Origin: Lingula anatina
Lineage: Eukaryota; Animalia; Brachiopoda
Length of the DNA: 64,000 bases
Assembly: GCA_051362555.1 (NCBI GenBank)
Contig: CM120649.1
Span: forward strand, 6,944,001 to 7,008,000
Reading direction: 5' to 3'
Both the position numbers and the translations under genes were made by a program. The notes beneath the pieces are model-generated. The model was not told the DNA's origin and made no database searches. It saw only the letters and a list, made by a program, of their open reading frames with translations. Within the stretch, counting starts at the first letter, position 1, and each line of letters begins with the position of its first letter. Positions 14,401-20,400 of the stretch are shown here, in pieces.

Positions 14401-17400
14401 CCCATTGTCAAACCCAAGATGGCTGCCAAAACTCACTGTCTCGTGCCAGTATGCTGACCATGGTGACCGTGGTGACAAAAAAGGCGCAGATCCAGTCCAG
14501 GCGAATAGCGAACCATCTCGTGGTGACCAGGAACAAGAACCAAGCCTCAGTGTGGAGATCTTGATGGCTGTTGAACTCTTTCCCAAACAGTTCCTCCACA
14601 TGGTAGGCACGTATGGTGGACAGGCCATTCAGTGTGGCACTTAGGTGTGAGAAGACGGGACTACGACCTAGAATAGGGACACATTCATCATTAATATCTA
14701 TTATGTACATAAACTGTTTGTGTGTATGTACATAATATCTATTATGTACATACACACAAACAGTTTATTTGCTGTATCAATGTTTCACCAAACAAAAACA
14801 TGTTCCCCATTAATACCCATGAGCACGCAGATATGTGCACTCACCCATTTGTCCAGCATGTTAAATCTAAAGGAAATTTGGTAATGTACCAACGAAAAGT
14901 TTCCACTGTTTCCAACTTTACATTAAAATGCAAATTTAATTCTTAACTATACAATAAAAATTTTTTTTTTTGAAAAATTTAGCCAACAACATGTAATGGG
15001 TAGAATATAATTCTTAAATGATATCAGACAACTTACAAGTCCCTTCCAGTCTCTTAATATCCCTGGAGGTGGCCAGGTAATATCTTCTGAGGTAGACAAA
15101 GAACAGACACAGAGGCAATGTAGGGATGAACACCCAGGGGTTGACCACGCCCGCTACCACTATGATACCCAGGATCATCAGGAAGCACTGAAATAGAGGT
15201 CATGTACAGGTCAGAGTTCATGTAAAGGTCAGATTGGGTCTAAGGTCAATTAATCATTATAAAATGGGATGTAACCTGAATTGATTTGTGCTTTATTTTA
15301 TTCTACTTTATTTTCTATTTTAGTATAATTCAATTTTACTTCAATTTTATTATTATCTAAATTATTTATTTTCACTTCATTTTTTATCAATATTTAAACT
15401 TTGTTCATTTACACGATATTTTATTCTAACTCCTCAGAGGGATATATGTAAGATTAGCGTGTATACTGAACATGTTTTACCCTCTTTAAGTAAAGTTTTA
15501 TTATTATTATTGTATTATGTTCTAAATATAAATTTCATACTAAAATTGAAGTTAATAATTCTATTATTTTAATCATTCTTGTGGGAGCCAATTGAAAATA
15601 ATTCTATATTTTTAAAGCATTTTTATCATATCACATGCAGCACATGATTTTCAGACACCTTCACAGAACTCTTCAACATGGCTTTTGCAGTATAATATAA
15701 TGACTGATTCACATACAGTGCATTCAAACAAAAAATGATGAAGTGCTAATTGTAAGCTTGACTACACACAAGACAAACAGGTGACTAGAACAGGTTACAA
15801 TTATACTTAATAAAGATGCACACAACTTAATTCAAAAATGGCATATGAAGAGCGATTCCAATTACTTAAAATATGTGCCCTTTATCACATAACATATCCC
15901 TATGCAACTATAACCTATCTTATGGCCTTACTTGAAGATCCATCCATGCAAAACAAAGGGTGGCCCCATACTAATATTTCCAGCCAACTTGTTACGTATC
16001 TCTGCCACTCGGCTCTTAATATTATAGGAATTTTGTTTAAAGATTTCTTACTAACTCCATTAATGCAATGAAATGTCTAAATAGAATTCTCTTGTATTTA
16101 TTTCTTATCAACTTTTAAAGAATAGGCAAAAAAAAAAAAAAAAAAAAAGAAGCACAAACCTGTGTGAAATCAAAGAAAGTAACAGGCAACAAGTCGTCCA
16201 TTTGTCCTGTGTCCTTGGCAAAACGATTCAGAATACGACCTAGAACAAAATGGGCCTATTTAAGTTTACCTCTTTATTTATTTATTTAATACCAAATTAA
16301 CTAAGCAAAAGACACCAGAAAATGCTGCCCTCCTGGCGAAGCCGTTGTTTTAAAGACTAAAGCACTCCTAAGACCTAGAGAAAAAATGGACTCATTGTCT
16401 TGCTGACTGCTCCATGCCATATTTTCCAAGAAAAAAGAAACATACAGAAAATATTGGCAGAGCAATATATTGCAAACAAAGTACCCATAAGATATCATTC
16501 AATTCAATGGTTTTCCCTAGAAAACTTAAAAAAATAAATCAAATGGTTTAATACTTTCACTGATAATCCTTCTACAAATATGGCAGAAGGTACAAAAATT
16601 GATTTGTTAGTTTCCAAGAGGGTTAAACCCCTGACCAATATAAAAATGCTACCAGAGGTCTCCTAGCTTTCTAAGCACATGGCATATACAAGTACAGGGT
16701 ATAGAAGGGGGTAAACATCTAGACCTACGTAGTAGTATACAGCTGGTTAGTGACTGTTAGAAATACTTTAGAGTTCCACATACAAAAGTAGCACGACTTG
16801 TGTGCTTCCCAGCTACATCATGGACTGAGCAGATCCAAAGTGTGACCATGCTCTCAGTAAAAAAGGTGTAGTAGAATTTAAACTTGTTATTTATTATGCA
16901 GCATACCAGGAAAAAAAAAGAGTTCAGAAGACGGCAAAATCTTTACTGGGTTACTGGTACAGGTTGTATTATGGAGTATCATATGCATGCAACTTACGTT
17001 GTTCTATTTTCAATTTGCAATCTTTATTTATTTTGATTTATTATTGATATATCATTTTTATTTTTTGTAGCACAAGGTTGACAGACAGTATAACCTTACT
17101 ACATTATTACAAGATTTTGCATGGTAAAAAATAGGCACAAAAGATTATCGGTGTGTTTCAGGTTAAACACCCATGTACTAAACTGATGGTGAAATACTTT
17201 CTCACTTTTCACTGCTGACATAGCCAGTCATGCAGTCAGCTGTGAAAATATGCTTTGTGATAGTGGCCCTCATTGAAAGAAATGTTACTGATTAATACAA
17301 ATGACATGCAATTAACATGGGGAAAGATAAGACCCCCAAGCACAGAAAGACATCCATCAAAAATTGTTAATAAAATCTCATGATGCAGGCTTTTTTTAAT

Positions 17401-20400
17401 AATGTTTATTAGTTATACTAGGGGTAAGTAACATGTACAAACAGACTGACAGTACTAATAAGGTAAACCAAGGTGGATGTTGAGAAAAAAAAAAAACACC
17501 CAGATCTCATAAACATGCATGCCATTCACATATTGGTCATTTGTTCGCGACATTTTCAGCGTAATAAAACAGATACATCACGGTCAGCAACCTGTATATC
17601 CCTCCTACTGAATATATCTTCTTAAAAGTACTCTTTAAAAAGTAGTTCAGTTCTCATTTAAGAATATAGCTACTTTATTCCAGATATCCATACATGGCAA
17701 TTTTTGTCCTAAAATGGTCTAGCAGTGAACATGGCCTACAAAAGGGACATACAAAAGGGTTGCATTCTCTCACTGAAATAAATAGGGAGCATCAAGAACA
17801 AAATCCTACACATTGTATGCAAAAATAAATAAAGCAGTGGAGTGTTAGTGTCTGCACAAAGAATCTAGAAGAACAAAAAGGGTGAAAATTAAGGGTAAAA
17901 CCTGAAATCAAATGTGAAAAAGATACCTCAATGAAGTCAAAAAACACCTCAGCTAAATAATCGTCCATGGTGCCTGTGTCCTTGGAGAATCTGTTCAGAA
18001 CTCTCCCTGGAAAACAATAGGGATTAAACAAACCAACGAACAAAACCATGGAGTAATTATGGTAATTACTCAATCTTTTCAACAAATTGTGAATTTTACA
18101 GATAATGTATTTTTAGGTCATAATTTCTTGATGTTATAACATTCCTATCGAGTGTTACCAAAATAATTAAAGAATAGACTGCTCTATAGTTTTATTCTAT
18201 GCAGTAAAAACACCACATGTTATAAAGCAATATAATTTTGGGATTATAAAATCATGTATCTGAAAGTTTGATAATTTCTGCCTCTTGAAAAGATCAAGTC
18301 ATTACCCTACACATATCAAGCAACTACCAACCACTTTTAGGTGCTTAGAAGTTGTAAAAACAACTCCAGGATTCAGGTATGTTTTTAGTCAGGTTTGGTC
18401 ATCCTCTATTGGTAGAAACCATTTTGAACTCGTTTATAGAGCAACCTTATCACTTTACTCAGTTGCACAAAAAAAATCACTTTTACAGGCACCCCTTTTG
18501 CTGGATATATCTGGTACGAGTAACTAATGTTATATATCAACAATATTATATAATTATCATAAGATTCAAACATTATTTTGTTTACAATGCATATAACATT
18601 TCATTTACCTGTAAATCATAACATTTTCACTCACCTACAGGATTAGTGTCAAAAAAATAGACAGGCACACGTATTATACTGTGGAACATCTTGTTGTGAA
18701 GGTTCCTGGAAGCATCGACACAAACTTTGAAAAACATTAGTGCGCGCAGCAGCCCGAACATAAACACGCTGACGGTCAGTCCCGTGAAGATGTAGATGTT
18801 TAAATTTGTGTCAACGTTGGGAACTGTGATGTTGGTGACATTGTACCCCTGCTCAAGAAGATATTGGTGTCGAGCAGAAAGAGATGCCTTGTGTTCTTCT
18901 TGATTTGACCTATAAAACATACAAAGTTATATATAGGTTATCTGTTTTGGTAGAGGTGAGTCAAGTAAGGGGAAAGCTTATTCAGTATAATATGCTGGAA
19001 TATTCAAACAGCTTTTTCTCCCACGCTTCTGTCCAATATTTGACAATTTTGTAAGTTATCAACAATGCATTTGTGTATATCTATAAGTACGTCTGTACAT
19101 ATTCTTTATTTCCATTCTATGATTCTTGTGAGTATTATTGAAAGTACAAAACTGTTGATAATTTAAGGATAATTTACATCATGAGTGTGAGGCTTAGAAC
19201 CACCAGCAACCTCCATATAAAAACTAATTAACAAGACATTTAAAAACATAGAACCCCTCATCTACTTTCCACCTGTGTGTGTGTGTGTGTGTGTGTGTGT
19301 GTGTGTGTGTGTGTGTGTGTGTGTGCAGGTGTCCCTGCATGAGCACATTCATGCACATGCCTGCATACGTGAAAATGGCTTTTTTACTTTCATTAACAGA
19401 CAATAAGATTCGAACATCATACCAGGTACCAGTTGGATTGATCAACTTCTGCTGGAGGGGGGGGGGGATTGGATTCCCACTAAATTGTATTCATCTTCAC
19501 TAGGGGATAATTAACTATCGTGTGACTTCAGCTTTATTACCCCCTGCAGCTCTAGGAGATGTGTCAGACATTTGAGACAATTACAGGGGTTGCACTAAGC
19601 AAGGATCTCCTGCCAATAAGATGGGTTTATCTGAACGCTTCACGAGGCTCTGATCATGTCACTCCCTCCTTTCATACCAGTATGACAGCCACCAGTGTGT
19701 GTGTGTATGTTTGCATGCATGCACATGCCTGTTTGTGTGCATATAGTTTTCTGACTTTAATAAGCAGACAATAAGCCTCAGCTCATGTCACCCCTCTCCC
19801 TTCATACCAGTATGACAGCCACCAGTCACTCATCACATAGGCCACCTGAGCTAGAATATTGAGCGTGACGAGCAACAGGAACACGCAGCACCCTCCCCCA
19901 GCCTTGAAGTAGTCCCTGTAAATCTTCCAGCCCACGGATCCCTCTGCTCGTTGCTCCTCCTCCTGCGCTGGCACATAGTCAGGCTGCAGATAAAATAAAG
20001 CATGCAATGTCATATTGCTGGCACACATAGTCAGGCTACAGATAAAATAAAGCATGTGATGTTGTTATCAACATTTATTTCTGACATATTTCTGCAATGC
20101 TGTGATAGTAATGGTTGAGACCCTTATCACACACTGTCTTACACTTAATAATTGAAAACTTGATTAAATAAAGGTGTACTCTACAAAGCAGGAAAGGTCA
20201 GAGATAATAAGTTATAGAAATATGCTACTGATGTGATAAGCAAAAAAGAAAAGTCTATCAAGTTGAGATGGAAAAGAAGTGAGCAAGAAAACGATGAAAA
20301 CAGACATTACATTGTTCAAATGAACCATACATACATAACAATGGACCAAGGGATGAAAACACCTATCCACATTGGGAAAGAAAAACAAATATTATACAGA

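Follow-up and report, generated by a model that had tools for sequence, protein, structure and literature searches.

A candidate pair of mutually exclusive exons at transmembrane helix 9 of the ABCC4 pump of Lingula anatina

It is already known that a single multidrug resistance-associated protein (MRP) gene can hold two clusters of mutually exclusive exons, and that exons have been duplicated repeatedly in MRP genes. Tandem exon arrays with competing RNA structures were reportedly described in metazoan MRP genes by Yue et al. 2017 (RNA Biol 14:1399). Independent tandem exon duplications have been found in MRP genes of many phyla (PMC6071210; published sources are cited here from excerpts of their text). 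The MRP gene of Drosophila melanogaster has two mutually exclusive clusters, of 2 + 8 exons, that allow 16 possible isoforms (Bolisetty et al. 2015, PMC4588896), and the partners of its two-exon cluster were represented by 4 versus 333 reads (PMC4588896). Here we analyse a window of 64,000 nucleotides (nt) from the brachiopod Lingula anatina (GenBank assembly GCA_051362555.1, contig CM120649.1, positions 6,944,001 to 7,008,000, forward strand; positions below are counted from its first letter), which contains an ABCC4 gene with two versions of its exon 17, named 17a and 17b. The reading that we favour, with a probability of about 0.7, is that these are two old tandem copies, and that 17a would be a functional, minor and mutually exclusive alternative to the default copy 17b.

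Drosophila MRP resembles the Lingula gene in being an ABCC pump with two separate clusters (2 + 8 exons) and 16 possible isoforms, and it offers a precedent for a rare partner within a two-exon cluster, but it is an ABCC1-type paralogue whereas the Lingula gene is ABCC4. In Lingula, the eight-exon cluster lies upstream and encodes transmembrane helices (TM) 5-6, and the first part of TM9 comes from the pair; in the fly, the clusters correspond to other helices. Exons 13A-D of Caenorhabditis elegans mrp-1 are likewise homologous, mutually exclusive exons of an ABCC pump with one rare member; this gene differs in being ABCC1-type and in that exclusivity is not policed by the reading frame, since its exons are 156 nt long, a multiple of three (PMC4165533). 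Unlike the metazoan arrays with competing RNA structures, no docking-site/selector pairing around 17a and 17b passed our controls. A literature search, with subscription papers and supplements outside its scope, listed no publication that treats this exon pair or the splicing of Lingula ABCC4.

The exon-17 pair and constraint on its second copy

The two copies and the exons on either side of them are as follows.
17927..18006, minus strand: exon 17a, of 80 nt and phase 1-0; an acidic variant of TM9 that lacks the proline (in MRP4 numbering A837, E838, V839, D842 and E845), absent from all annotated isoforms.
16160..16239, minus strand: exon 17b, of 80 nt and phase 1-0; of the canonical MRP4 type, in six of six annotated Lingula isoforms covering the region.
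18635..18909, minus strand: exon 16, constitutive, encoding TM8 and intracellular loop 3 (ICL3), phase-1 donor.
15037..15187, minus strand: exon 18, constitutive, encoding the rest of TM9 and TM10, phase-0 acceptor.

Both 17a and 17b are bounded by AG and GT and lie between exon 16 (ending at 18635) and exon 18 (starting at 15187). With either copy alone, exon 16 reads in frame into exon 18. When both are included, a stop is met 9 nt into 17b; when both are skipped, it is met 131 nt into exon 18, with eight further junctions downstream. A preliminary description of this locus had reported two homologous 80-nt exons of the same phase with intact splice sites, of which both or neither would break the frame. 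The premature stops in each case bear this out, and our translations agree with the earlier ones.

The copies share 52 of 80 nucleotides (65%) and 18 of 27 residues, against at most 38/80 in any other 80-nt window of the gene, and a profile scan found exactly two copies of exon 17 in the gene. Among the 26 whole codons, eight are identical, nine differ synonymously and nine non-synonymously, which agrees with the many synonymous differences noted previously (proportion of synonymous differences, pS, 0.75 versus 0.24 for non-synonymous, pN; Fisher p 3e-4). In a two-branch codon model, neutral evolution of 17a since the duplication was rejected (likelihood-ratio test statistic 13.6, p 2e-4). Synonymous sites are thus saturated while the protein is conserved, and for this reason 17a is probably functional. 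In the introns flanking 17a and 17b, alignment between the copies is lost, and the duplication is therefore old.

All splice sites of the pair are GT-AG. Scored with a matrix built from the 25 introns of the gene itself, 17a outscores 11 of 25 sites with its donor and 20 of 25 with its acceptor, values that fall inside the constitutive range or exceed it. The weakest acceptor in the gene is that of 17b (16240-16260, minus strand), which has an upstream AG at -18 and a short pyrimidine tract. Because none of the six annotated isoforms uses 17a, it is probably a minor form rather than the default, and we infer a minor, actively repressed exon.

Several observations weigh against a functional 17a. 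Its absence from the six annotated Lingula isoforms that cover the region stands although six of the eight exon-8 variants are annotated, and no protein containing it was found, either by a word search (40-residue window frame; two candidates, none scoring) or by HMMER on cluster representatives (17 hits, best identity 78%, none of them 17a), both being weak tests. The splice-site matrix comprises only 25 sites, and a recent death of 17a is compatible with the selection test. Two strongly conserved positions are altered: of 85 homologous segments, 84 have P837 and 73 have Q845, where 17a has A837 and E845; the E838 of 17a occurs in none of 95. A second exon 17 appears in none of 19 isoform sets from molluscs, a hemichordate and a moth, among the isoforms listed (at most 15 per cluster; 21 sets in total). 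Two copies were found in none of 15 metagenome loci, several of them short, of which three carry an exon 17 with the same boundaries.

These observations bring in the alternative that 17a is a recently silenced duplicate, functional for long enough to show purifying selection and no longer spliced. It would account for the absence of 17a from the annotation and from both protein searches, several of the changes at conserved positions cluster in the 3' third of 17a, and a probable repeat relic (see below) lies 54-300 nt upstream of its acceptor. We nevertheless consider it unlikely: the length, frame and both splice sites of 17a are intact and score well, its changes match a natural proline-less type found in other genes, and a strong proximal acceptor would not be expected to persist in a dead exon.

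Predicted exclusive use and ancestry of the pair

That the pair is mutually exclusive, as originally suggested, finds support in the frame logic, in the constraint on 17a and in an annotated exon swap in the nemertean Lineus longissimus, and we regard it as likely. As to how exclusivity may be achieved, steric exclusion is ruled out by the 1.7-kb intron that separates the copies. The simplest safeguard would be the frame shift together with nonsense-mediated decay, which would remove transcripts with both copies or with neither; in C. elegans, this decay contributes in 14 of 19 clusters whose exon length is not a multiple of three (PMC4165533). In most cells, 17a would presumably be repressed despite its good acceptor.

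Around 17a and 17b no inter-intron helix scored above shuffled sequences (best 30/60; ungapped scan), and folding of the whole region gave no significant z score (-1.65 and -0.78). The one strong stem is local to a single intron:
18061..18306, minus strand: two inverted-repeat arms of 22 bp each, at 18306-18285 and 18082-18061 within intron 16-17a, which are likely the ends of a repeat relic.
The stem beats 1000 of 1000 shuffles, yet it does not rise above the intron background of the gene, in which 6 of 55 other tiles score higher, and its 5' part is 68% like the stretch 30496-30374, a dispersed repeat. On account of these background scores and this likeness it was treated as a repeat relic; lying upstream of 17a, the stem could still help to repress that exon.

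Among relatives, the closest case is the ABCC4-like gene of Lineus longissimus, whose RefSeq isoforms X1 and X2 (XP_064639147.1, XP_064639148.1) differ only in the 27-residue block of exon 17. Two FastTree trees place the Lineus protein as sister to that of Lingula, with support of 96, and of 93 when exons 8 and 17 are left out (five short fragments dropped). The same exon is thus swapped in the same gene lineage, but both Lineus copies keep the proline, and the alternative copy has V rather than E at 845. As to the orthology of the copies in the two species, two quartet sites against one lean slightly towards separate duplications. Conservation of the pair in relatives had been proposed in the preliminary description as a check: the swap is annotated in Lineus, and the mollusc, hemichordate and moth isoforms listed have a single exon 17.

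Proline-less versions of exon 17 (A/S837, V839) occur elsewhere, in a Plectus protein, in six fragments and as the only copy in an intact gene. The last (L003:6001-6081) is an ABCC4-like gene with compact introns, and its one counterpart of exon 17 shares 21 of 27 residues with 17a. Since the A837/V839 type is the only copy in this intact gene, the peculiarities of 17a are compatible with a working pump. A tree on the 27 columns joins 17a to eight proline-less sequences (Shimodaira-Hasegawa-like approximate likelihood-ratio test, SH-aLRT, 96), all retrieved by their similarity to 17a and thus subject to selection bias.

This grouping, and the fact that 17a is closer to the L003 exon (21/27) than to 17b (18/27), could mean that the pair is protostome-wide and that 17a is the surviving partner of a Plectus-type proline-less exon lost in molluscs and others. 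We hold such an origin to be quite improbable, as the grouped sequences were picked for their likeness to 17a, a clade of 17a and 17b is not rejected (approximately unbiased test, p 0.40), at the nucleotide level 17a (48/80) is no more like L003 than 17b is (50/80), neither Lineus copy is proline-less, the quartet sites stand 2 to 1 for separate duplications, and convergence is simpler. We read the likeness of 17a to the proline-less genes as convergence, which shows that a proline-less helix is tolerated.

Three further protein models were observed with repeated stretches in this region. The MRP1/2-like model PSN31484.1 (P0319) of the insect Blattella germanica has three tandem versions of the TM8-TM9-equivalent stretch, which suggests an exon array over the same helix. 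Models from a Bos hybrid (P0142) and from Branchiostoma floridae (P0107) contain two near-identical exon-17 stretches, in P0107 together with the exon-18 stretch, and represent either a recent duplication or an assembly artefact.

Exon 17 and the cargo pocket

Exon 17 aligns without gaps to residues 819-845 of MRP4 and 970-996 of CFTR. It had been described as leading into TM9, which is correct but understates its position, as it also holds the pocket positions 838, 842 and 845. Mammalian ABCC4/MRP4 (PDB 8SX7, 8BJF and others) is the best structural homologue, and 17b matches its residues 819-845 including P837, D842 and Q845. By comparison, 17a has A837, E838, V839 and E845, and only the canonical version is present in the solved chains. 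The proline loss and acidic gain attributed to 17a earlier are confirmed, with two more acidic residues in 17a. In 17a D842 is kept, and Q845, which belongs to the pocket, is replaced by E.

Residues D842 and Q845 of bovine MRP4 face the C15 hydroxyl of prostaglandin and, together with R362 of TM6, hold the sulfate of dehydroepiandrosterone sulfate (DHEA-S) at the TM6-TM9 interface, and the cytoplasmic part of TM9 helps to form the intracellular gate (bioRxiv 10.1101/2022.12.22.521501). Excerpts of two other MRP4 structure papers (PMC11948813, PMC10202912) give a list of pocket helices and nothing on these residues, and PMC7072590 contributed nothing further. The numbering offset between MRP4 and bovine MRP1 is 250 here, so that MRP4 position 838 corresponds to bovine MRP1 Q1088 and human MRP1 E1089. 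Bovine Q1088 is a pocket residue that stacks on vincristine (PMC12647609), and the human change E1089Q reportedly impaired drug resistance while leaving organic-anion transport unimpaired (from a paper on anthracycline resistance, as cited in PMC1488846).

We predict that the 17a swap would retune the TM9 wall of the cargo pocket. E838, E845 and the loss of the P837 kink would make this wall more acidic, which may weaken the binding of sulfated and other anionic cargo and favour neutral or cationic cargo. The little effect of human E1089A on vincristine export (PMC12647609) makes this cargo prediction uncertain.

Gene model, exon-8 array and combined exon choice

The gene as a whole, as judged from its sequence, is an intact Lingula anatina ABCC4/MRP4.
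10861..63252, minus strand: whole ABCC4/MRP4 coding span, 26 exons with 8a and 17b.
The model, running from 63252 to 10861, has 1555 codons and a stop with 8a + 17b, zero internal stops, and seven residue differences from a full-length Lingula protein (P0066). An exon of the window is a 100% match to a Lingula anatina protein named multidrug resistance-associated protein 4. The gene has the short-MRP architecture and its closest homology is to ABCC4. Among structures MRP4 is the best match (~1560 bits, against ~890 for CFTR and MRP1), and the Lingula protein falls inside spiralian ABCC4-like proteins in trees built from ABCC4-like rows only. The exon numbering of the preliminary description is correct on this model.

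Profile scans over the gene confine whole-exon duplication to exons 8 and 17. Each of the eight candidates for exon 8 has an open frame, is bounded by AG and GT, and is 3n+1 nt long.
46066..46315, minus strand: exon 8a, canonical TM5-TM6, keeps R362, L363, L367 and F368.
44338..44590, minus strand: exon 8b, keeps R362; intact, not in annotated isoforms.
42580..42838, minus strand: exon 8c, with S362, H363, D367 and H368.
39795..40056, minus strand: exon 8d, 8c-like; intact, not in annotated isoforms.
34026..34284, minus strand: exon 8e, 8c-like.
30962..31226, minus strand: exon 8f, 8c-like.
27785..28040, minus strand: exon 8g, with S362, D363 and D367.
25701..25947, minus strand: exon 8h, keeps R362.
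With eight open candidates and two exon-17 copies, the earlier figure of up to 8 x 2 = 16 isoforms holds as an upper bound. R362 is lost in 8c-8g. Exons 8c-8f are near-identical recent copies in which the hydrophobic TM6 patch L363/L367/F368 has become H363, D367 and H368, and in which H371 has been added.

Other features of the locus were noted in passing. Two long foldback (palindromic) repeats, 96% identical, lie in introns of the exon-8 cluster at ~24030-24300 and 30060-30320, with a possible degraded relative at ~17560-17625 in intron 17a-17b. Both ends of exon 15 have short local duplications (19635-19694 and 19985-20034, minus strand), including a donor copy and a copy of the acceptor region. 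At ~244-2130 (minus strand) there are several short Cys-rich open frames with no Pfam match, which look metallothionein-like.

It had also been suggested that splicing of 17a is coordinated with that of the non-canonical exon-8 variants, in which case matched TM5-6 and TM9 halves would build distinct pockets. The structural premise is sound: TM6 (R362, exon 8) and TM9 (D842/Q845, exon 17) form one sub-pocket in MRP4, and residue 845 contacts TM5 L321 in the ATP state (both according to excerpts of the structural literature). Moreover, 8c-8g lack R362, and the H363, D367, H368 and H371 of 8c-8f could complement the acidic residues of 17a. The splicing premise is unsupported. Exons 8e, 8f, 8g and 8h are annotated with 17b and none with 17a, in short-read models to which true linkage is invisible; in all 19 of the other isoform sets exon 8 varies and exon 17 is single, and Lineus varies exon 17 with one exon 8 (two isoforms), in both cases among the isoforms listed. 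The clusters are separated by eight constitutive exons and 7.7-28 kb.

No RNA pairing between the clusters passed controls either. Pairing of 8c-8f with intron 17a-17b through a 24-nt complement was rejected as no better than chance (22 of 200 shuffled sequences; higher scores in 4 of 19 control stretches). The best helix between the exon-8 cluster and an intron outscores 30 of 30 shuffled sequences, but the partner in this helix is a foldback repeat, of which the cluster contains two copies. Coupled splicing therefore seems quite unlikely to us, and the choice of exon 17 is likely made without a fixed link to exon 8, although shared tissue regulation could produce a loose correlation between the two. 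It would be highly speculative to see a two-module pocket library here, in which co-expression of the acidic 17a with the His/Asp-rich 8c-8f lets one gene turn an organic-anion pump into a cation or metal exporter.

With this pair, exon swapping in MRP pumps would reach the TM9 helix of spiralian ABCC4 (Lingula, Lineus). If 17a is spliced, it would constitute a natural two-state switch at TM9 positions 837, 838 and 845, which are pocket-lining in mammalian MRP4/MRP1. It would then also allow a direct test of whether an MRP1-like glutamate shifts the charge preference of an MRP4 scaffold, either alone or in combination with the eight natural TM5-6 variants.

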